From the NCBI GenBank assembly GCA_964503485.1, contig CAZDBH010000003.1:678-64677 (forward strand): a stretch of 64,000 nucleotides of DNA, written 5' to 3'. The position numbers were made by a program, and so were the translations under genes. This document shows positions 54,383-62,141 of this stretch, one piece after another. Within the stretch, counting starts at the first letter, position 1; every line of letters starts with the position of its first letter. The stretch comes from an uncultured Bradymonadales bacterium. Its GTDB lineage: Bacteria; Myxococcota_A; Bradymonadia; JAFGEP01. The notes below the pieces were generated by a model. It searched no databases, was not told the origin of the DNA, and saw only the letters and a program-made list of their open reading frames with translations.

Positions 54383-56107
54383 ATGAACGCAATCGAATAC
54401 TCCGTTAGCTTTCCTAATCCACACACTCACCGAATCGCTGTGACGCTGCGCTTTTGTGCGGCCAGCGACCGGCCTGAGGTCGCCATGCCCGCCTGGACTC
54501 CCGGCTCTTACCTACTTCGGGAGTTTGGGCGCCATATCGAGCACCTGTCTGCTCAAACAGGCGGGAAAGAGACCACGACCCACAAGATCGGGAAGGCAAC
54601 TTGGCGAATTGATGCCGTGGCAGGAGATGAGGTTGTCGTCGAGTATGGCATCTACGCCCATGAGTTGACTGTCCGAACCAGCCATGTCGACGGAACCCAC
54701 GCCTTTCTTTCTGGCACTTCGACCTTCCTCTTCGTCAAAGGACAGAAGGACCTGCCCGCCACCGTCCGGATTGCGACTCCTGATGGATGGCAGACCTTCA
54801 CAACCCTGCCGGAGGCCGGGCAGGATACCTTCAGCGCAAGCGACTACGATCATCTCGTGGACTGTCCGATCGAGATCGGACCCGACCACCACCACTTCGC
54901 ATTCAACGCACTCGGCGTCGAGCACCAGGTCGTGTTTTGGGGCCCGACCAATGCGGATTACGAAGAGCTCGCTGAAGACATGGCGGAGATTGTAAGGGCA
55001 AACGCAGCTCTCTTCGGTGGTCTGCCCTACGAGCGTTATCTGTTCATCGTTCACACCTCGAGCAAGGGTCAGGGTGGACTCGAACACCGCGACAGTTGTG
55101 CCCTGCAGTGGCAACGACACCGCTTCGAGGGTTCCGATTATGATGAGTTTCTGCGCCTCGTCTCGCACGAGCACTTCCACGTCTGGAATGTGAAACGCAT
55201 TCGTCCCGACAACCTGGGACCATTTGACTACCTCGCGGAGAGTCCAACGACCGTACTTTGGGCGATGGAGGGCGTAACCAGCTATTACGACAAGCGCCAG
55301 GTTCTTCGCTCGGGCCTGGTGGACGGCGAGCGGTACCTCGATTGGGTGGCAGAATCCATCAACAAGTTGAACCTCATCCCCGGCCGCAAGCTGACCTCAC
55401 TCGAAGAATCGAGCTTTGACGCCTGGATCAAGCTCTACCGACCGACTGAAAACTCGGCCAATGCCACGGTCAGCTACTACCTCTTGGGCAGCTTGGTCAC
55501 CATGGCGCTCGACCTCGAGATCCGGCGCACCACCAATGGGAATTCGAGCTACGACGACGTGATGGCAACCCTGTGGCAACGCTATCAGGACACCCGTTCC
55601 GGTCTAGACGAACTCGAGTTCAAACAGATCATCAAGGACATCGGCGGCGAACACCTCGATTCTTGGGTTCACGAATTGATCGAGACTCCCGCCGATCCGG
55701 ACTGGGATCATCACCTCAGCGTTGTGGGAATGAAACTCGAGGCCGAGAAGAACGGCAAACAACCCTACTTTGGTCTCGTCTTCTCGCGAGGAGCGAGGAT
55801 GCGGGTTACCACGGTGCTGACCGATGGACCGAACGCCGAGTCAGACATTTACCCGGGCGACGAAGTGATCGCGCTAAACGGCTTTGAAGTCGACCCAGGC
55901 AAATGGAAACGAGTTCTGTCGATGCTACCCAACGACGAGACAGTCGAGGCGACGCTCTTTCGGAAGGGGTTGCTTCACACCAGTACCATTCAATGCGGGC
56001 CACCCCGAGTGAAATTCAAGGTTGTGCCGGTCAGCGATCCGAGTCCGGAACAGTTAGAACACCGTGCCAGCTGGCTGTTTCAGACCGACTTGCCAGAGTC
56101 GGAGTAA
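54383..56107 (+). CDS. Peptidase M61 (glycyl aminopeptidase family) with a C-terminal PDZ domain.
   Basis: HEHFHVWNVKRIRP contains the HExxH zinc motif in the M61 context. The C-terminal PDZ-like segment is GDEVIALNGFEV. Confidence 0.75.
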   Translation: MNAIEYSVSFPNPHTHRIAVTLRFCAASDRPEVAMPAWTPGSYLLREFGRHIEHLSAQTGGKETTTHKIGKATWRIDAVAGDEVVVEYGIYAHELTVRTSHVDGTHAFLSGTSTFLFVKGQKDLPATVRIATPDGWQTFTTLPEAGQDTFSASDYDHLVDCPIEIGPDHHHFAFNALGVEHQVVFWGPTNADYEELAEDMAEIVRANAALFGGLPYERYLFIVHTSSKGQGGLEHRDSCALQWQRHRFEGSDYDEFLRLVSHEHFHVWNVKRIRPDNLGPFDYLAESPTTVLWAMEGVTSYYDKRQVLRSGLVDGERYLDWVAESINKLNLIPGRKLTSLEESSFDAWIKLYRPTENSANATVSYYLLGSLVTMALDLEIRRTTNGNSSYDDVMATLWQRYQDTRSGLDELEFKQIIKDIGGEHLDSWVHELIETPADPDWDHHLSVVGMKLEAEKNGKQPYFGLVFSRGARMRVTTVLTDGPNAESDIYPGDEVIALNGFEVDPGKWKRVLSMLPNDETVEATLFRKGLLHTSTIQCGPPRVKFKVVPVSDPSPEQLEHRASWLFQTDLPESE

Positions 56108-56114
56108 GACTGGC

Positions 56115-57680
56115 TCAGTTAGTCGGAAAGATCTGCTCGAATCGAGGCAGAGGTTCCTTGATTCGTTCAAGAAATGCCCGATCCCGGTCTAAATCAAGCT
56201 GGGCCGCCGAGATTATTGCGCTCGCCCGTTGCCAGCTCAGCACCAGCTCGAGGGGTGATGGGGGTGCTGCATAGGCCCGATACAAACTTGCGTAGGGCTG
56301 GTTTGCGGCCACCGACAGTGCTGCGATACGCTGCAGGGGCATGAACATTACGTTGCTGTTCACCTTTGGGGCGAATGGGTCTAGGGCATAAATGAACGCG
56401 TTGCGCGTCTTTGTTGTACCGGAGTGGACCGATTCCCAGGCGATTCGGGCGGGCACATTGTTGACCACGCCGCCGTCTGCCAACCCCCACAGTTTTCGCT
56501 CCTCGAACATCGCGTTGATGGTCGCTCGCGTTCCTTCGTGGACGTCGGATGGCAGGTCGTAGCAAAAAAGGCCGGGTACCGCGCACGAAAAGCCGACCGC
56601 ATCGATTATGGTCGTCTTTGCAGTTGCTTCATCGCGCCCAAACACGACCTCTTCGAGAAAACGTGGGTTGTCGACTAGGGTCGACAGGACCCGCATGAGT
56701 CCCGACACCCGCTTTCGAACCTTCAGCCCGGTGTACGTACGGAAGCTCCCTGGTGAGCCGGGCACTTCTCGCAACGCCGCTTTCATACCCACGCGAATTC
56801 CGGTCGTCACGATCTCGAGCGGAATCTGAAGCTCCTCGAAAGTGATTCGCGGTTGGTTGATGAGCAAATCGAGGGTGAGGCGCGAGATTTCGTTGAGCCT
56901 CAGATAGAACGCGCCAGGAAAGCCATATTTCAGCTTCCCACGATTGGGCCGAAAGAGGTCCCCGCGGTCGAAACGTCTGGGCAGAGCCAACATGGTGCCG
57001 ACCGGGTCCCAATCCTCTTTGATCGCTCTAAATAAGCCGATCAAGCTCCCCATAGAGGCGCCGACGATCAGGCTGGGCGTCCACGAGATGGCGTGCAACA
57101 AGGACAACACGCCGAGGTGGGCGAAGCCGGAGCCTCCGCCACCGCCGAGTGCCAGAACCAGTTCTTTGTTGCACACCTCGTTTTCGATGAGTTCGGGAGG
57201 CATTCGGTCGGCCGACTGCTCCTTCAACCGCTTTCTGGTCCTCACCATGCGCCGTTTGATGTCGGGAAGCAGGTAACTGAGGCCGGCCGGATCGATCGGT
57301 CCTTTGAGGCTGATCCGTTTGAAATTGTCGATCAGCCAACCGCGAAAGTCGCCTAGCGACCCGCTCAAATCGACGTCGTGGCCGCCGGGTGTGCGTATCA
57401 GACTCAGTTTTGCGAGGTTCAGGGCGTAGCGAGTGGTCAGCTCTTGGGACGACGCCATCGGCGTCTTGTTCGAGACAATCTGCTCGACCAACCGCCTCTC
57501 GAAGTCGATGAGAGGCCGTACTGACTCGAAGTGGGCTTTTGCTGAAACGACCAAATGGTTACCCGCTGCCAAACCATATAAAGACGCTTGCGATGACGCA
57601 CTGCGTCGGCTAAGTAACTCTCGAACCGCCTGAAAGTCCAGGGAGCTGTAGACATGGCTGAAGAAAGCAACGAACAACAA
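56115..57680 (-). CDS. Patatin-like phospholipase family protein.
   Basis: LVLALGGGGGSGFAHLGVL is the Gly-rich oxyanion loop. GASMG is the GxSxG nucleophile. The downstream DGG-type Asp is LADGGVVNN. The start may be internal. Confidence 0.75.
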   Translation of the reverse strand: MLFVAFFSHVYSSLDFQAVRELLSRRSASSQASLYGLAAGNHLVVSAKAHFESVRPLIDFERRLVEQIVSNKTPMASSQELTTRYALNLAKLSLIRTPGGHDVDLSGSLGDFRGWLIDNFKRISLKGPIDPAGLSYLLPDIKRRMVRTRKRLKEQSADRMPPELIENEVCNKELVLALGGGGGSGFAHLGVLSLLHAISWTPSLIVGASMGSLIGLFRAIKEDWDPVGTMLALPRRFDRGDLFRPNRGKLKYGFPGAFYLRLNEISRLTLDLLINQPRITFEELQIPLEIVTTGIRVGMKAALREVPGSPGSFRTYTGLKVRKRVSGLMRVLSTLVDNPRFLEEVVFGRDEATAKTTIIDAVGFSCAVPGLFCYDLPSDVHEGTRATINAMFEERKLWGLADGGVVNNVPARIAWESVHSGTTKTRNAFIYALDPFAPKVNSNVMFMPLQRIAALSVAANQPYASLYRAYAAPPSPLELVLSWQRASAIISAAQLDLDRDRAFLERIKEPLPRFEQIFPTN

Positions 57681-59192
57681 GAAGCTGCTGCCAAAGAAGA
57701 AAAGACCGCCGAGAAAAAGGCGGCTGCAAAGCCAAAGACCGCCAAGAAGAAGGCTGCCCCCAAAACGAAGAAGGCGGCGAGCTCAAAGGCTAAAGCCACT
57801 GCAAAGCCAAAAGCCAAGAAGGCTCCGGCCAAGGCGAAAAAAGCGACTACAAAGGCAAAAGCTGCCAAAGCTCCAGCCAAAGCAAAGAAGGCGCCTGCCA
57901 AAGCGAAGAAAGCACCCGCCAAGGCCAAGAAGGCGCCCGCCAAAGCGAAGACCAAGAAGGCACCTGCCAAAGCCAAGGCCAGTAAAGCACCTGCCAAGAC
58001 TGAAGAGGCGGCTGCCAAGGTAGAGACCGCCAAGGCACCTGCCAAAGCTGAGAAGGCGGCGAGTAACGGTGCCCCCAAGAAGGCGAAGGCGCCGAAGAAG
58101 AAGGTTCAGAACGTTCACCTCATCACTGGTTTTCCGGGCTTCATCGGCCGCCGGTTGGTTGGCGAGATACTGCGCACACAGCCCGACTCAACCGTCGTCG
58201 CGCTGGTTCAACCGCAGATGGTTGGGCACGCCAAGAAAGCCGTGGCCAACCTGACTGAAGAGAACGCTGGTAGCCGAGTTGAACTGGTGGTCGGCGACAT
58301 CACCCAGCCGAAATTGGGCATTGAGCCCAGCGTGCACTCGAGCCTTCTCGAGCGCGTGGGGACTGTCTGGCACCTCGCTGCGATCTACGACCTGGCCGTC
58401 GACGAACAAGTTGCCTATCGGGTCAACGTGGTCGGCACCTCCCACATTTTGGATTTCTGCGAGGCACTTCGCAATCTCGTTCGACTGAATTACGTATCCA
58501 CCTGCTACGTGGCTGGCGAGCGCGACGGGTTGGTGCTGGAAAGTGAGCTCGATGTCGGGCAAGGACACAAAAACCACTACGAGTCGACCAAGTTCTGGGC
58601 CGAACTCGAAGTTCAGCGACGTTGGGGGACCTTGCCGACCTCAATCTTCCGCCCAGGTATCGTAGTGGGCGACTCCAAGACGGGGGCCACGGACAAATAC
58701 GATGGCCCGTACTTCCTCATCAATCTGCTTCTACGCATTCCCAAGTGGTTGCCGATGGTCAACGTTGGTGCCGGTGACGCTACAGTCAACTTGGTACCGG
58801 TCGACTACGTGGTCGACGCAATGGTCTCGATCGGAAGCAGGGAGGGCACCACAGGAAAGGTCTATCAGCTCGGCGATCCCAACCCGATGCGCGCCAGAGA
58901 CTTGATCAGCTTGCTGCTTCAGCGATTGGGACGGAAGCAGGCGATCGGGACGATCCCTTCGTCGTTGTTCGAGGGGGCTCTCGGTGTTGCACCGATACGG
59001 CGACTGGTCGGCATCCCGAGAGAATCCGTGGTCTACTTCAATCATCCGGTTCGCTTCGATGTGAGTGCGACCCTCGAGGCTCTCGAAGGGACGGGCATCC
59101 GCTGCCCGCACTTCTCGGACTACGCGACCACAATGATCGATTACATGAAGCGAAACCCCGACAAGGGTTTCCTCGACAACCGCCGGATCTGA
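57654..59192 (+). CDS. Histone-H1-like Lys/Ala/Pro-repeat N-terminal domain fused to an SDR-type thioester/fatty-acyl reductase (NAD_binding_4-like) domain.
   Basis: About 145 aa of KAPAKAKKA repeats. Then VHLITGFPGFIGRRL (a GxxGxxG Rossmann loop) and YESTK in NHYESTKFWAE (the YxxxK catalytic motif). Confidence 0.7.
   Translation: MAEESNEQQEAAAKEEKTAEKKAAAKPKTAKKKAAPKTKKAASSKAKATAKPKAKKAPAKAKKATTKAKAAKAPAKAKKAPAKAKKAPAKAKKAPAKAKTKKAPAKAKASKAPAKTEEAAAKVETAKAPAKAEKAASNGAPKKAKAPKKKVQNVHLITGFPGFIGRRLVGEILRTQPDSTVVALVQPQMVGHAKKAVANLTEENAGSRVELVVGDITQPKLGIEPSVHSSLLERVGTVWHLAAIYDLAVDEQVAYRVNVVGTSHILDFCEALRNLVRLNYVSTCYVAGERDGLVLESELDVGQGHKNHYESTKFWAELEVQRRWGTLPTSIFRPGIVVGDSKTGATDKYDGPYFLINLLLRIPKWLPMVNVGAGDATVNLVPVDYVVDAMVSIGSREGTTGKVYQLGDPNPMRARDLISLLLQRLGRKQAIGTIPSSLFEGALGVAPIRRLVGIPRESVVYFNHPVRFDVSATLEALEGTGIRCPHFSDYATTMIDYMKRNPDKGFLDNRRI
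57790..57995 (+). repeat. Imperfect 27-bp tandem DNA repeats (about 6-7 copies) encoding AKAKKAPAK units.
   Basis: gccaaagcgaagaaagcacccgcc / aaggccaagaaggcgcccgcc ... reiterated. Confidence 0.65.
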
Positions 59193-59411
59193 AGCCGATG
59201 GCTCTCTCCTAAAACGCAGACGGCCTCCGACTTTCTTGCGACAGCCTCGTTGTGGGTGAGTGTAAGTTTTTGGCTTGATTCTTCCGCGTCAATTCGGTAA
59301 ATACGGTGTGTCTGGTCATGGTCCGTGGCGGCCCTTTGCGTCCCCTGGCCGGGCATTGTCGCAATCCACGGAATCCCATGTGTCCTTAACCGGCGCACTT
59401 TGGAGGCCAGG

Positions 59412-60707
59412 ATGCGATTCAACTCCCTATTCATTTGTAACATCACCCTAATCACTGCCCTGTTTTCGATTGGATGCGTCGAAGAACCGGTCGGCGATCT
59501 CGACGAGACCGGCGATTTGGCCACATCGACCCATGCCGTGCTCGAGGGAACGCCGCAGGCCATCGGCCTTCTGGCGTTGCTCAACGATCCGGCGCCCACT
59601 CTCGACATTCTGGATCATGACGTTCGGCTCGACAGTCGTGCCGCAAAGAACCTGATTCACCGCCGCGATGGTTACGACCAGACTCCCGGCACATCCGACG
59701 ACAACTTGTTCGAGAGTGTTGCCGAGGTAGATCGCGTTCGTTGGGTAGGCAACTCGGCGATCGGCCGCTTGCTTCACGCCGCGGAGAACTGGGGCTGGGT
59801 CCCGGAAGGCGACGAGCGTTTGGGACGCTGGGACCGCGTGGCCTTCACCGTCACCGAGGCCGCACTCACACTCGAGTTCGTCAATCAGGCCTCTCATGAC
59901 CTGCTTGATCACGATCTAGGTCTGGATCGGCGCGCCGCCGACTCGATTGTAGCTGCACAGCCCATCACGTCAGTCGCGACGCTGGCTGGCCTCTACTACG
60001 TAGGTCACAGCGCCTTGGACACGCTCAAGGAAGTGGCGAACCACGTGCCAGTGGTCGACTCCGTCCAATTCTCAGACCAGTTCAATCACGACGAAGCGGA
60101 CGAGATTCCCGATGGCGACAACTATGGCCTCACGACTCGAGTGCATGTGGCCAGCGTGCCGGATGTACGAGTCGGCGTTGTCATGGTCGTCGATTTTCTT
60201 CACGATGCTCAAGACGAGCTCCACCTGGAACTTACCAGCCCGACTGGCGACTCGTGGGAGTTCGTGGCCAACGACAAAGGGACCTATCCGATCGGCGCTC
60301 TGTTGAACCCGAACGGTTACTGGAGACTGACGGTTTCGGACCGAACAGACGGCAATGTGGGTGAACTCTACGGGTGGGCCCTGGAAGTCAGCACAGACAC
60401 GACTGAGTCCGTCATGCAGGACCGATTCAAACTCGACCTCGCCTGGTGGCTCGGTCACTGGTATCGCTCCTACGGCGCCGATGCCGTCCAAGCGGGAGGC
60501 CACTCCCTCGAGGAAGCAAGAGAGGCCATCGATGCCGGTACGGTCACAGAATTGGCGGACTACCAGGACGACCCCGAAGGCAACGATCCAGCCACAACGC
60601 TGGTCTTGACTCACAGTGACGTCGTATTCCCGGGTGGCGATACCGTGTGGTTCGTGTCCTACGACCGCGAGACCGGTACGATCGTCGACGTCTACGACTT
60701 CCAGTAG
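59412..60707 (+). CDS. Lipoprotein with two helix-hairpin-helix (ComEA-like) motifs and a C-terminal proprotein-convertase P-domain-like beta-sandwich.
   Basis: GGAGG RBS and lipobox LFSIGC. Two HhH-like motifs: LDHDVRLDSRAAKNLI and LDHDLGLDRRAADSIV...LAGLYYVGHSALDTL. The tail VVMVVDFLHDAQDELHLELTSPTGDSWEF...YWRLTVSDRTDGNVGELYGWALEV resembles P_proprotein. Confidence 0.55.
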   Translation: MRFNSLFICNITLITALFSIGCVEEPVGDLDETGDLATSTHAVLEGTPQAIGLLALLNDPAPTLDILDHDVRLDSRAAKNLIHRRDGYDQTPGTSDDNLFESVAEVDRVRWVGNSAIGRLLHAAENWGWVPEGDERLGRWDRVAFTVTEAALTLEFVNQASHDLLDHDLGLDRRAADSIVAAQPITSVATLAGLYYVGHSALDTLKEVANHVPVVDSVQFSDQFNHDEADEIPDGDNYGLTTRVHVASVPDVRVGVVMVVDFLHDAQDELHLELTSPTGDSWEFVANDKGTYPIGALLNPNGYWRLTVSDRTDGNVGELYGWALEVSTDTTESVMQDRFKLDLAWWLGHWYRSYGADAVQAGGHSLEEAREAIDAGTVTELADYQDDPEGNDPATTLVLTHSDVVFPGGDTVWFVSYDRETGTIVDVYDFQ

Positions 60708-60917: not shown

Positions 60918-62141
60918 ATGAGCGAACAGAGAATCGTCTACTTCGACAACAACGCGACCAGCCAGGTCGACGAGAGAGCCATCACAGCGATGGTCGGAAT
61001 GCTGCGAGACACCTACGGCAATCCCTCGAGCTTGCACCATTTTGCGGAGCGAGCCAAAGAGGCGCGAGAGCAAGCCCGTCAGTCGGTTGCTACTCTGTTG
61101 GGATGCCGAAGGGCGGAGGTCATCTTCACCAGCGGAGCTACCGAAGCCATTGCGACAGCCTTTCATGGCGCTCTCAACGGTCTCGAGGGTGCTCATTTTG
61201 TGACGACGACTGTCGAACACCCAGCGGTGTTGAGCAACGCCGAGGTGTGGCGTGAGCGTGGCTGCCGCGAGACGCGAGTTGGCGTCAACGAGCACGGAGA
61301 ACTCGATTTAGAGGCCTTCGAGGCGGCACTGGCAGACGGAGCCGACTTTGCGGCCGTTATGGTCGCGAACAACGAGACTGGAGTTCTTTTTCCGGTTGGC
61401 GACATCGCCAGGCTGTGCAAGGAGCACGGCGTGAGCCTGCTCCTTGATGCCTCCCAGGCAGTAGGCAAAATCCCGTTCGACATCAAGAGCCTAAAACCGG
61501 ATTACGTGGCACTCTCAGGCCACAAGTTCAACGCCCCCAAAGGGGTTGGAGCCCTCTATCTGAAGCGCGGCGGGCGTTTCTCCCCTCTCTTCCCCGGGGG
61601 TGGGCAGGAACGCAACCGGCGGAGCGGCACCGAGAATATGCCTGGTATCGTCGCTTTGGGCGTCGCGGCTAGTATCGCGGGTGCACGTCTCGAAGCGGGA
61701 GAGATGGACCGCGTCGCCGAATTGAGAGACTACCTCGAATCCGAGATTCTTCAGCGCTTTCCAGAAGCCAGAGTCAATGGGAAGCGAGATTCCAGGTTGC
61801 CCAATACGTCGAACCTGAGCTTCAAGCATGCATCGGGAGAAGCAATTCTGCAGCACCTCGACGAACTCGGGATCGCCGCGTCCAGTAGCTCGGCGTGCTC
61901 GTCGAACGAACAGGAGCCGTCTCATGTACTGAGGGCCATGCGCGTGCCCGAATCGCACATTCACGGCTCCGTGCGCATTGGGTTAGGAGCGCACAACACC
62001 CGCTCTGAGATCGACTATTTGCTCGAACATCTGCCGCGAGTCATCGCAGCCGCGCGAGCGGCGAGTCCGTTTGTGGGCACCTCCCAAGGCGATGACTATT
62101 TCGAAGGAAACGCCAGAACTGGCGAGCGCTACTGCGAGTAG
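60918..62141 (+). CDS. Cysteine desulfurase, class V aminotransferase (NifS/IscS-like).
   Basis: FTSGATEA, and SGHKFNAPKGVGALY containing the PLP-Lys. SSSSACSS carries the catalytic Cys loop. 407 aa. Confidence 0.85.
   Translation: MSEQRIVYFDNNATSQVDERAITAMVGMLRDTYGNPSSLHHFAERAKEAREQARQSVATLLGCRRAEVIFTSGATEAIATAFHGALNGLEGAHFVTTTVEHPAVLSNAEVWRERGCRETRVGVNEHGELDLEAFEAALADGADFAAVMVANNETGVLFPVGDIARLCKEHGVSLLLDASQAVGKIPFDIKSLKPDYVALSGHKFNAPKGVGALYLKRGGRFSPLFPGGGQERNRRSGTENMPGIVALGVAASIAGARLEAGEMDRVAELRDYLESEILQRFPEARVNGKRDSRLPNTSNLSFKHASGEAILQHLDELGIAASSSSACSSNEQEPSHVLRAMRVPESHIHGSVRIGLGAHNTRSEIDYLLEHLPRVIAAARAASPFVGTSQGDDYFEGNARTGERYCE

Follow-up and report, generated by a model that had tools for sequence, protein, structure and literature searches.

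A histone H1-like Lys/Ala/Pro tail at the N-terminus of a thioester-reductase-type enzyme from an uncultured Bradymonadales bacterium: a possible polyanion tether

The locus described here raises the question of why a reductase should begin with a long, histone H1-like tail, and whether such a protein is real at all. The window, that is, the whole stretch of 64,000 nucleotides that was analyzed, contains a gene whose product had been described in a sequence-only reading as a Lys/Ala/Pro-rich (K/A/P) repeat region fused to a reductase domain. The gene is a single ORF without interruption in the ORF list (Table 1), and the 512-aa protein was found identically in the NCBI, JGI and ENA gene calls. 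ATG 57654 is the sole in-frame ATG, GTG or TTG ahead of codon 168, which is located past the NAD-binding motif (residues 158-165). Since no other in-frame start codon precedes this motif, the tail must be translated; any product made without it would be devoid of the motif. The MAEE... N-terminus is common to the 512-aa protein and to P0001, P0002, P0003 and P0005, and the orthologues with this start also bear a tail. No hydrophobic or signal segment was found in the 512-aa protein. The gene product was thus shown to be one cytoplasmic protein. The antisense ORF 57437..58078 (213 aa, A/L/F/G-rich) was rejected as a gene, being a shadow of the Lys/Ala codon repeats.

Table 1. Positions of the features of the locus within the window.
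Feature	Position	Strand	Basis
Patatin-like phospholipase, 479 aa from TTG 57554	56115..57554	-	Pfam Patatin 4e-20; homologue starts
Divergent intergenic region, 99 bp	57555..57653	.	Conservation vs L001
Shine-Dalgarno-like GGGAG	57641..57645	+	8 nt 5' of ATG; read from sequence; conserved in L001
K/A/P tail + NAD_binding_4 reductase, complete CDS	57654..59192	+	512 aa plus stop; ORF list, public gene calls
Acidic N-terminal cap, residues 1-23, MAEESNEQQEAAAKEEKTAEKKA	57654..57722	+	AF2 low-confidence helix; conserved with P0001
Disordered (predicted) polycationic Lys/Ala/Pro tail, residues 24-153	57723..58112	+	Composition, AF2 pLDDT
Four tandem perfect KAPAKAK heptads, residues 72-99	57867..57950	+	21-bp period; TRF, heptad table
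Thioester-reductase-type extended SDR, residues 154-505 (Rossmann + C-terminal substrate subdomain)	58113..59168	+	Pfam PF07993, AF2, Foldseek
Glycine-rich dinucleotide-binding motif TGFPGFIG, residues 158-165	58125..58148	+	120-sequence alignment
Catalytic YxxxK, Y309-E-S-T-K313	58578..58592	+	120-sequence alignment

An artefact, in which a frameshift, a misassembly or a wrong start fuses an ordinary reductase of ~365 aa to a small separate K-rich ORF or to a leader that is not translated, would agree with the size of most family members (~364 aa, of which 6-12 precede the Rossmann strand) and with the proneness of low-complexity repeats to assembly errors. It is opposed by the start codons described above, by the good Shine-Dalgarno sequence ahead of ATG 57654, by the codon-aware substitution pattern in the repeats, and by the tail ORF itself, which is unbroken in at least 10 orthologues with differing tail sequences. 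Moreover, three other metagenome assemblies contain the gene without any change, so that four independent assemblies are base-for-base identical across the tail tract. The artefact, extremely improbable in our estimation, is effectively refuted already. The repeat region is not a separate small ORF or one half of a frameshifted pair, and the claim that tail and reductase form one protein stands. The fusion is genuine and only moderately surprising, because similar tails recur on this reductase family in predatory Bradymonadales-like bacteria.

The composition and the predicted structure of the tail were analyzed next to those of the catalytic domain. The N-terminal 157 residues include 51 Lys, 54 Ala, 13 Pro and 11 Glu, which gives 75% K+A+P and a net charge of +40; the tail lies above a threshold of at least 70% Lys+Ala+Pro over at least 100 residues with short tandem repeats. 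A search of the 64-kb window in six frames showed that it is the only K/A/P-rich ORF segment. In the AF2 model, a helix was placed at residues 4-23 (pLDDT 55-75), and DSSP assigned no elements to residues 24-153. The pLDDT values were mostly below 50 over residues ~28-120 (mostly 45-49 from residue ~31 on), 56-59 over residues 121-140, and 79 over residues 141-150. The ~150-residue N-terminal tail is therefore predicted to be intrinsically disordered. Its description as H1-like was borne out by the residues it is made of, by its repeats and by its predicted lack of order. At E≤10, no family in Pfam or NCBIfam matched the tail, the PAKKA and [ST]PKK motifs were each counted zero times, and Pfam gave no match to the winged-helix domain of linker histone H1/H5 (PF00538), with no folded element in the tail other than the low-confidence helix.

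The tail contains six perfect KAPAKAK heptads, two of which lie outside the tandem block (57819-57839 and 57957-57977), and two 9-residue spacings come after that block. TRF detected periods of 21 (3.6 copies, 81% matches), 42 (88%) and 27 (3.0 copies, 83%), and the autocorrelation of the tail peptide had maxima at lags 7, 9 and 16. Because periods of 21 and 42 are present besides 27, the earlier description as 27-bp nonapeptide repeats is right in the K/A/P repetitiveness and fits only part of the tract in its unit, the core being a heptad (21 bp) and not 9 aa. The six DNA copies of the heptad differ by at least 10 substitutions, all of them at the third codon position and all synonymous (P ~6e-7 under neutrality), which indicates that the KAPAKAK peptide is under selection. 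This analysis showed that the tail is translated and kept by selection. At the same time, the tail is the least conserved stretch of the gene in comparison with L001 (35-70% nucleotide identity), and in the nearest species it has another length and another repeat unit (proteins of 512 vs 484 aa; four indels, all in frame). Judged by these comparisons, tail length and repeat unit evolve quickly. The suggestion that the tract is a hotspot of copy-number variation could not be demonstrated: length and repeat unit differ between relatives, and in the sampled population the four assemblies showed no variation in copy number; the likeness of the repeat copies at the DNA level, just 81-88% according to TRF, was also counted against it.

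In the case of the catalytic domain, residues 156-390 matched Pfam NAD_binding_4 (PF07993) with an E-value of 9e-50 and a score of 169.6 bits against a cut-off of 20.1, residues 157-390 being aligned to positions 1-258 of the 258-position model. In the alignment of 120 family sequences, T158, G159 and G162 are invariant, F160, P161 and F163 are at least 90% conserved, and Y309, E310, T312 and K313 are again invariant. The claim of a complete SDR/NAD_binding_4 domain with GFPGFIG and YxxxK motifs was confirmed by these data. The pLDDT over the domain was mostly above 90. The best phmmer match in the PDB was MxaA (4u7w, 3e-23, residues 7-358 of the domain), and the Foldseek search was headed by 4u7w and 4w4t (TM 0.76-0.77), followed by 8v1x, 7eoz (rice FAR) and 5msv, with CAR R domains among the matches. 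The AF2 model and Foldseek agree in the two-subdomain R-domain fold. The domain shares TGxxGxxG, YxxxK and the whole 350-residue length with PKS/NRPS R domains (MxaA, 4u7w) and CAR R domains, and the MxaA match covers the C-terminal substrate subdomain too (E 3e-23, TM 0.76). The window's domain differs from MxaA-type R domains in being stand-alone, with ~27% identity and no PCP/ACP or adenylation domain in the protein. The profile and motif matches show a complete stand-alone SDR of predicted acyl-thioester-reductase type in which both the NAD(P)-binding motif and the catalytic Tyr/Lys pair are intact, and the closest folds to that of the model were shown to be those of terminal PKS/NRPS R domains and of fatty acyl reductases.

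The domain scored 125.7 bits with NCBIfam TIGR01746 (thioester reductase), below the cut-off of 213.35, which makes it a relative and not a member by the NCBI threshold. The best NCBIfam match was PRK07201, the model of two-domain SDRs of the bacterial fatty acyl-CoA reductase type, with 267.5 bits over model positions 3-356 of 657, that is, the N-terminal NAD_binding_4 half; the score is far below the equivalog cut-off of 549 bits and the protein ends before the C-terminal short-chain dehydrogenase half (~357-657). The K/A/P tail replaces nothing in that architecture. Both scores below the cut-offs were counted against the reading, considered below, of a tethered lipid-type reductase. FCR1 (Rv3391) of M. 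tuberculosis is presumably a member of the PRK07201-type family. FCR1 converts fatty acyl-CoA to aldehyde and alcohol (PMC3522743). The PRK07201 match suggests a long-chain acyl substrate. Pfam gave no match to the C-terminal ('Sterile') domain of FAR at E≤0.01, and the sequence match to rice FAR 7eoz was limited to residues 6-153 of the domain. An OleD-type assignment was rejected, the score being only 33 bits where 580 are required. The conserved neighbours include neither an acyl-activating enzyme nor a carrier protein, so that the substrate class is a guess from the fold alone. What is conserved nearby is an M61 peptidase, CcmH-like proteins and a large repeat protein that is secreted, along with other proteins; these neighbours reflect synteny and not a lipid pathway, and operon logic was therefore discarded as a guide to the substrate.

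A patatin-like phospholipase gene is transcribed divergently from the reductase gene. The two genes had been reported to overlap by 27 bp at their starts, which requires the first possible TTG (57680) and a patatin of 521 aa. This overlap turned out to be an artefact of the longest ORF. A 1-nt indel relative to the nearest relative breaks the patatin frame upstream of codon 18, most of the 19 aligned homologues start at codon 43-44 of the window's version (TTG 57554), the gene call for the orthologue in L001 has 479 aa, and the public gene calls for the source contig give 458 aa. With the start at TTG 57554, ~99 bp separate the two genes. The segment 57483-57660 has 93% nucleotide identity to L001, compared with ~79% in the flanking coding sequence, so that the intergenic region and the first ~70 nt of the patatin gene form the most conserved block of the locus. 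In this block, no sigma-70 consensus was found, an Rfam search at E≤1 gave no match, the MFE z-scores of the RNA fold were -0.7 and -1.0 (not significant), and the repeat tool detected no inverted repeat of 8 nt or more. A structured RNA or riboswitch was rejected on the basis of the Rfam and folding results. No intergenic motif common to the window and the more distant L086 and L088 was found. The divergent patatin-reductase pair itself is kept in L001, L086 and L088 at 50-60% identity and is missing from the second tail-bearing clade.

The distribution of tails was followed through the family. Named homologues were found at 57% identity or less (GTDB species representatives), and the members, from Bradymonadales/Myxococcota, are mostly ~364-365 aa long. 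N-terminal extensions range from 6 to 157 residues and from -11 to +40 in net charge. Basic tails were found in two separate NJ clades and additionally in L027 and L063; such tails recur in at least two lineages and probably in four. In 893 kb of related loci, K/A/P-rich segments were present in 8 reductase genes and in 2 of ~800 other ORFs. This distribution shows that a single enzyme family of the Bradymonadales-like Myxococcota has repeatedly acquired, or retained, tails of this kind. The fusion is therefore not the one-off oddity it had seemed, and the architecture recurs in the family, yet the combination of a K/A/P tail with a reductase is nowhere annotated or described in the databases and literature searched. 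A large Persicimonas-type clade has acidic extensions, other sister members have none, and the tail of P0003, which belongs to the same clade as the window's protein, is mixed and has a net charge of -9. This variation of charge was counted against a tether. Tail charge correlates positively with the charge of the catalytic domain (r = 0.45), with acidic tails on very acidic, halophile-like domains. Charge compensation or autoinhibition by the basic tail was rejected, as the catalytic domain in the window carries almost no net charge (-1) and the correlation is positive.

The tail resembles in composition those of AlgP, PhaF and PhaM (Pseudomonas, Cupriavidus) and the PAKKA tails of MLDS, Ku, HupB and TopA (Actinobacteria). 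Like AlgP/PhaF tails, it has short tandem Lys/Ala/Pro repeats, predicted disorder and a large net positive charge, and like AlgP-type tails it varies in length between relatives and is joined to a domain with another job. The partner domains of known K/A/P or PAKKA tails serve in granule binding, as topoisomerase or in end-binding, whereas that of the window is a metabolic oxidoreductase with no known tie to DNA or granules. The window's tail is N-terminal and built of KAPAKAK, while AlgP/PhaF-type tails are C-terminal and the known repeats are KPAA or PAKKA. No profile matched the tail to the AlgP/PhaF C-terminal domain or to H1, and the resemblance is compositional. The net charge is +55 in the AlgP tail and +35 in that of PhaF, and the KPAA tail of AlgP binds DNA and is needed for the spacing of polyP granules (PMC9239181). 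In PhaM and PhaF, a histone-like domain serves to tether PHB granules to the nucleoid (PMC13052382), and the PAKKA tail of MLDS binds DNA non-specifically, the binding being abolished by a Lys-to-Glu change (PMC5504291). Lysine repeats stabilise the TopA-DNA complex, and lysine-repeat tails are also common in GC-rich bacteria on proteins not annotated as DNA-binding (PMC5714199). In Streptomyces, 175 of the 554 proteins with such tails are annotated as DNA-binding (PMC5714199); as about two thirds are not, a tail of this kind need not mean nucleoid association. The heptad KAPAKAK occurs literally in histone H1 tails (PMC7037223).

Based on these precedents, a tether to the nucleoid or another polyanion is a reasonable reading. 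The tail would tether the enzyme electrostatically, and without sequence specificity, to a polyanion inside the cell, most likely nucleoid DNA and/or polyphosphate granules by analogy with AlgP, PhaF, PhaM and MLDS, and would concentrate or position the reductase with its chemistry unchanged. Tethering would not be essential to catalysis, because most family members have no tail. The enzyme would most likely reduce a long-chain acyl-CoA, an acyl-ACP thioester or a fatty aldehyde with NAD(P)H and may act in lipid remodelling alongside the patatin-like lipase. A possible context is given by named relatives that feed on prey lipids and have no complete fatty-acid synthase; Bradymonabacteria accumulate granules of polyP and of PHA, and FabF and FabI are missing from them (PMC7460792). 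We put the chances at about even that the tail tethers a lipid-type reductase to a polyanion and that the enzyme works with the patatin lipase in lipid remodelling. The narrower proposal, that an H1-like tail acquired convergently several times within the family holds a lipid-type reductase of acyl groups or aldehydes at the nucleoid or at polyP granules, is possible and is put forward tentatively.

The tail could also be a non-specific disordered appendage without a dedicated partner, its charge being incidental to lineage-specific composition; it might serve as an entropic bristle or solubility enhancer, serve as a spacer, or be a repeat expansion tolerated at a permissive N-terminus. The wide range of extension lengths and charges, the correlation of tail and domain charge, the low conservation of the tail within the gene and the lack of any profile match are all consistent with it. 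The solely synonymous differences among the six heptads argue for selection on the exact peptide and so against an appendage, as do the strong enrichment of K/A/P tails on the reductase family relative to neighbouring genes and their appearance in separate clades; furthermore, a polycation of +40 is expected to bind cellular polyanions, 'intended' or not. We find this explanation rather doubtful.

Another candidate target for the tail is an anionic lipid surface instead of DNA or polyP, either the PG-/cardiolipin-rich inner membrane or the phospholipid monolayer of neutral-lipid/PHA inclusions, which would bring a soluble reductase near the hydrophobic acyl substrates freed by the neighbouring patatin lipase. 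The fold of fatty-acyl and thioester reductases and the conserved, divergently transcribed patatin partner point in this direction, PHA inclusions are made by Bradymonabacteria (PMC7460792), and MLDS (PMC5504291) and HBHA (PMC6176652) are examples of lipid-droplet proteins that have a Lys-rich tail. However, the tail has no hydrophobic or amphipathic segment, the second tail-bearing clade lacks the patatin pairing, and in MLDS, PhaM and PhaF it is the Lys-rich part that binds DNA while a separate domain binds the droplet or granule. Lipid-surface targeting is unlikely.

If the tail positions the enzyme, the locus would be a clear natural case, in bacteria, of a disordered tail that binds polyanions in general and so gives a metabolic enzyme its location. 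The nucleoid or granule reading, if true, would carry over to an enzyme the tether principle of the structural proteins AlgP, PhaF, PhaM and MLDS, with possible roles in clearing reactive lipid aldehydes beside DNA or in coupling prey-lipid processing to storage granules. If the tail is inert, the locus is a well-documented example of rapid low-complexity evolution at a permissive N-terminus. The tail-less, acidic-tailed and basic-tailed orthologues of one enzyme form a built-in comparative series, which could test how charge-patterned disordered regions control enzyme location. The analysis also brings to attention a widespread family of stand-alone thioester-reductase-type enzymes, linked in one clade to a patatin lipase, whose hosts have named relatives that are predators unable to make their own fatty acids.

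A homology search with the tail only gave two marginal matches, P0121 and P0122 (E 0.014 and 0.9), both metagenomic CheY-like receivers; the scores are marginal because of the composition correction. The partner domain in these proteins is PF00072, unlike the window's reductase. In both, the same KKAPAKA heptad is repeated 5-6 times in tandem, also N-terminal to a globular domain.

The reductase gene (57654..59192, plus strand) is one unbroken ORF encoding 512 residues. Residues 1-157, which precede the Rossmann motif, comprise 51 K, 54 A, 13 P and 11 E with a few T or S; this part is 75% K+A+P, with a net charge of +40 and a pI of 10.5. Scanned in all six frames, the 64-kb window showed no second segment of this Lys/Ala/Pro (K/A/P) type. 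The sequence-only reading had treated the repeats and the reductase as one protein, with a frameshift or a separate small ORF as the alternative. No in-frame ATG, GTG or TTG was found between codon 1 and codon 168, which lies past the glycine-rich NAD-binding motif (158-165), so a tail-less product would also lose the cofactor site. A Shine-Dalgarno sequence (GGGAG) is located 8 nt 5′ of ATG 57654, the MAEE... N-terminus is common to the orthologues P0001, P0002, P0003 and P0005, and public gene calls include an identical 512-aa protein. The gene is present without any base difference in three more metagenome assemblies (JGI 3300009008, JGI 3300008954 and ENA ERZ23498660). Moreover, the DNA copies of the six tail heptads vary at six third-codon positions through at least 10 substitutions, all of them synonymous. 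As synonymous changes are expected to make up only ~24% of random substitutions in the heptad codons, the probability of this pattern under neutrality is ~6e-7. The start-codon, Shine-Dalgarno, orthologue, assembly and substitution evidence therefore led us to reject the frameshift, separate-ORF and artefact explanations. The long disordered polycation of about +40 on an intact reductase is maintained by selection.

The tail had been described as KAPAKAKKA nonapeptides encoded by 27-bp repeats. The perfect repeat copies are KAPAKAK heptads, the autocorrelation of the tail peptide has peaks at lags 7, 9 and 16, and TRF detected periods of 21 bp (3.6 copies, 81%), 42 bp (88%) and 27 bp (3.0 copies, 83%). 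The earlier description is therefore only partly right: the 27-bp period and two 9-residue spacings agree with it, but the core is a heptad with a 21-bp period.

The reductase domain is a complete thioester-reductase-type SDR, as had been proposed, and it is stand-alone. Pfam NAD_binding_4 matched residues 156-390 over the full model (9e-50), and T158, G159, G162, S282, Y309 and K313 are invariant in the alignment of 120 family members. The enzyme is apparently active. The best NCBIfam match, the N-terminal half of PRK07201, scored 267 bits against a cut-off of 549, and the thioester-reductase domain TIGR01746 126 bits against 213, both below threshold. The closest solved structure is 4u7w, the terminal R domain of myxalamid synthetase MxaA (E 3e-23), and the alignment reaches the C-terminal end of the protein. 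An AlphaFold2 model built from 120 homologues had a pLDDT mostly >90 over residues 154-505. In the tail, pLDDT was mostly 45-49 without secondary structure over residues ~28-120 and still low to ~140; an acidic helix at 4-23 was modelled with low confidence. The top Foldseek match in the PDB was MxaA (TM 0.76); behind it came DPW, a fatty acyl reductase of rice, the thioreductase domain of a PKS and R domains of carboxylic acid reductases. Across the family loci, neither a carrier protein nor an acyl-activating enzyme nor a lipid gene was found as a conserved neighbour.

Homologues numbered 252 at E<=1e-10 and were mostly unnamed or annotated as "SDR family oxidoreductase" or "thioester reductase-like"; those with names belong to Bradymonadales (Persicimonas, Lujinxingia, Microvenator), to other Myxococcota or to a scatter of further phyla. 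A typical member has 364 aa, with 6-12 residues N-terminal to the Rossmann strand, and 14 of 118 close relatives carry an extension of at least 40 residues. The proteins with strongly basic tails (Table) are split between at least two separate clades in a neighbour-joining tree of catalytic domains. A large Persicimonas-type clade has acidic extensions of 26-53 residues instead, and the tail of P0003, from the clade of the window protein itself, is mixed (net -9). The charge of the tail correlates with that of the catalytic domain (r = 0.45): acidic tails are borne by domains that are themselves very acidic (net -15 to -29), and basic tails by near-neutral ones. The DNA around 82 family members (893 kb in total) holds 10 ORFs with K/A/P-rich segments, each at a different locus. 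Reductase genes account for eight of them (seven distinct proteins, as L001 and L002, contigs of the nearest relative, carry the same one), against only 2 of ~800 non-reductase ORFs. Thus, the K/A/P tail is specifically and repeatedly associated with this reductase family, in which it is neither universal nor charge-conserved. The Persicimonas-type orthologues (e.g., P0030, P0057 and P0104; loci L005, L008 and L009), with domains of net -15 to -29 and short acidic extensions, give the impression of a general halophile-type acidification of the proteome in a single branch of the family; the clade of the window protein is near neutral.

The nearest relative, P0001, shares 89% protein identity (best local alignment) and ~79% DNA identity across the locus. 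Its tail is 28 residues shorter and built on another repeat unit, of 15 residues (KKAPAKAKAAAKPKA), and four in-frame indels (27, 24, 45 and 9 nt) separate the two tails; therefore, repeat number and unit change between species. Nowhere in the locus is conservation lower than in the tail, with 35-70% nucleotide identity to L001 in 60-nt windows. A copy-number hotspot had been predicted, which fits the difference between species but not the sampled population, where four assemblies compared base by base showed no variation in the tract. With DNA copies only 81-88% alike, the tract is too diverged to be an obvious slippage hotspot.

The tail and the reductase are each of a known kind; their combination was not found described in the literature searched. 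Profile searches placed the tail in no curated family, and a literal literature search for the repeat peptide gave matches only within plant-type histone H1 sequences. A tail-only search retrieved only uncharacterised CheY-like receivers with the same heptad: P0121 and P0122, metagenomic proteins of ~200 aa with 5-6 tandem KKAPAKA/KAPAKAK heptads at the N-terminus. The heptad module is therefore found on at least one unrelated domain. In GC-rich bacteria, lysine-repeat tails are numerous on proteins not annotated as DNA-binding (379 of 554 lysine-repeat proteins in Streptomyces; PMC5714199), and the fusion is therefore notable rather than startling to a specialist.

Several characterised tails suggest a role by analogy. 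AlgP has a KPAA tail that both associates with polyphosphate granules and binds DNA, and even granule spacing depends on it (PMC9239181). A histone-like domain lets PhaM and PhaF tether PHB granules to the nucleoid (PMC13052382). In Rhodococcus, the lipid-droplet protein MLDS binds DNA non-specifically through a PAKKA tail, and this binding is lost when Lys is changed to Glu (PMC5504291); lysine repeats stabilise Streptomyces TopA on DNA (PMC5714199). By this analogy, the most probable role of the reductase tail is that of a non-specific electrostatic tether to DNA and/or polyphosphate, and the enzyme would be concentrated in this way at the nucleoid or at granules. The characterised tails are C-terminal and have KPAA, PAKKA or S/TPKK motifs, whereas the reductase tail is N-terminal and lacks these. 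Tethering to DNA or polyphosphate specifically is a tentative proposal; the demonstrated anatomy taken together with a generic polyanion tether is an even call. That the tail has no dedicated partner seems rather unlikely, and anionic lipid surfaces as its target improbable. Cultured Bradymonabacteria store polyphosphate and PHA granules, lack FabF and FabI, and rely on prey fatty acids (PMC7460792), which makes a localised acyl/aldehyde reductase beside the patatin lipase plausible.

The divergent patatin-reductase pair is kept in the subclade of the window (50-60% protein identity), which suggests co-regulated lipid metabolism in this lineage. It is not conserved in other Bradymonadales loci, and the tail occurs both with and without it. 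The commonest reductase neighbour in Bradymonadales loci is an M61 glycyl-aminopeptidase gene, divergent in some and downstream in others; the patatin gene appears to have been inserted between the two in the lineage of the window. Downstream of the reductase, before a cysteine-desulfurase-like (Aminotran_5) gene, lies a gene with a weak proprotein-convertase P-domain match. The nearest relative (L001/L002) lacks it at this place, which makes it a lineage-specific insertion or loss. The Aminotran_5 gene is linked to the pair in the window, L001/L002 and L088, where it lies directly downstream of patatin with a 4-nt overlap. In L089, a 409-aa gene follows the reductase.

Table. Features of the reductase locus and of related proteins and loci (window coordinates unless a residue, protein or locus is named).
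Feature	Position or carrier	Strand	Size	Net charge	Remark
KAPAKAK heptad, perfect copies	start residues 56, 72, 79, 86, 93, 102
Directly tandem heptads	57867-57950		4 copies		then two 9-residue spacings
Antisense ORF	57437-58078	-	213 aa		A/L/F/G-rich; opposite tail
M61 glycyl-aminopeptidase gene	54383-56107	+			also ~20 related loci
P-domain-like gene	59325-60707	+	431-460 aa		called 59412-60707 in L083
Aminotran_5 (NifS/IscS-like) gene	60918-62141	+			L088 530-1756
Patatin-reductase pair	L001
Patatin-reductase pair	L086				P0003 + P0138
Patatin-reductase pair	L088				P0010 + P0136
Basic K/A/P extension	window protein		157 aa	+40
Basic K/A/P extension	P0001		129 aa	+31
Basic K/A/P extension	P0002		95 aa	+24
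Basic K/A/P extension	P0005		83 aa	+15
Basic K/A/P extension	P0010		32 aa	+12
Basic K/A/P extension	P0012		96 aa	+15
Basic K/A/P extension	P0034		55 aa	+12
Basic K/A/P extension	P0064		55 aa	+11
Basic K/A/P extension	P0065		42 aa	+9
Basic K/A/P extension	L014 (Microvenator sp.)		at least 61 aa	+13
Basic K/A/P extension	L027 (Lujinxingiaceae)		~60 aa
Basic K/A/P extension	L063		62 aa	+19

With TTG 57680 as its start, the longest minus-strand patatin ORF (56115-57680) would extend 27 bp into the reductase gene, an overlap that the sequence-only reading had reported. Among 19 aligned patatin homologues, most start at window codon 43-44, including those of Bradymonas sediminis and Persicimonas caeni, and a conserved F..hR.L...ERR motif runs on from this position. 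A 1-nt indel near 57630 relative to L001 alters the frame upstream of codon 18, and the gene call for the L001 orthologue has 479 aa. The best-supported predicted start is consequently TTG 57554 (479 aa), which leaves a divergent intergenic region of 99 bp and no overlap. The antisense ORF opposite the tail was rejected as a gene; it arises as a shadow of the repeated Lys/Ala codons, whose CTT/GGC runs contain no stops, and explains the artificial extension of the patatin ORF over the reductase start. Public calls of the patatin start are inconsistent, with 458 aa for this contig (JGI) and 479 aa and 447 aa for the two contigs of the nearest relative. Over the 4.8-kb aligned locus, conservation peaks at 57483-57660 (93% nucleotide identity to L001, against ~79% in flanking coding DNA), a block that spans the intergenic region together with the 5′ ~70 nt of the patatin gene and is probably a shared regulatory region. 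An imperfect hairpin/palindrome, GACGCTTGCGATGACGCACTGCGTC, is located at 57583-57607 and is fully conserved in L001.
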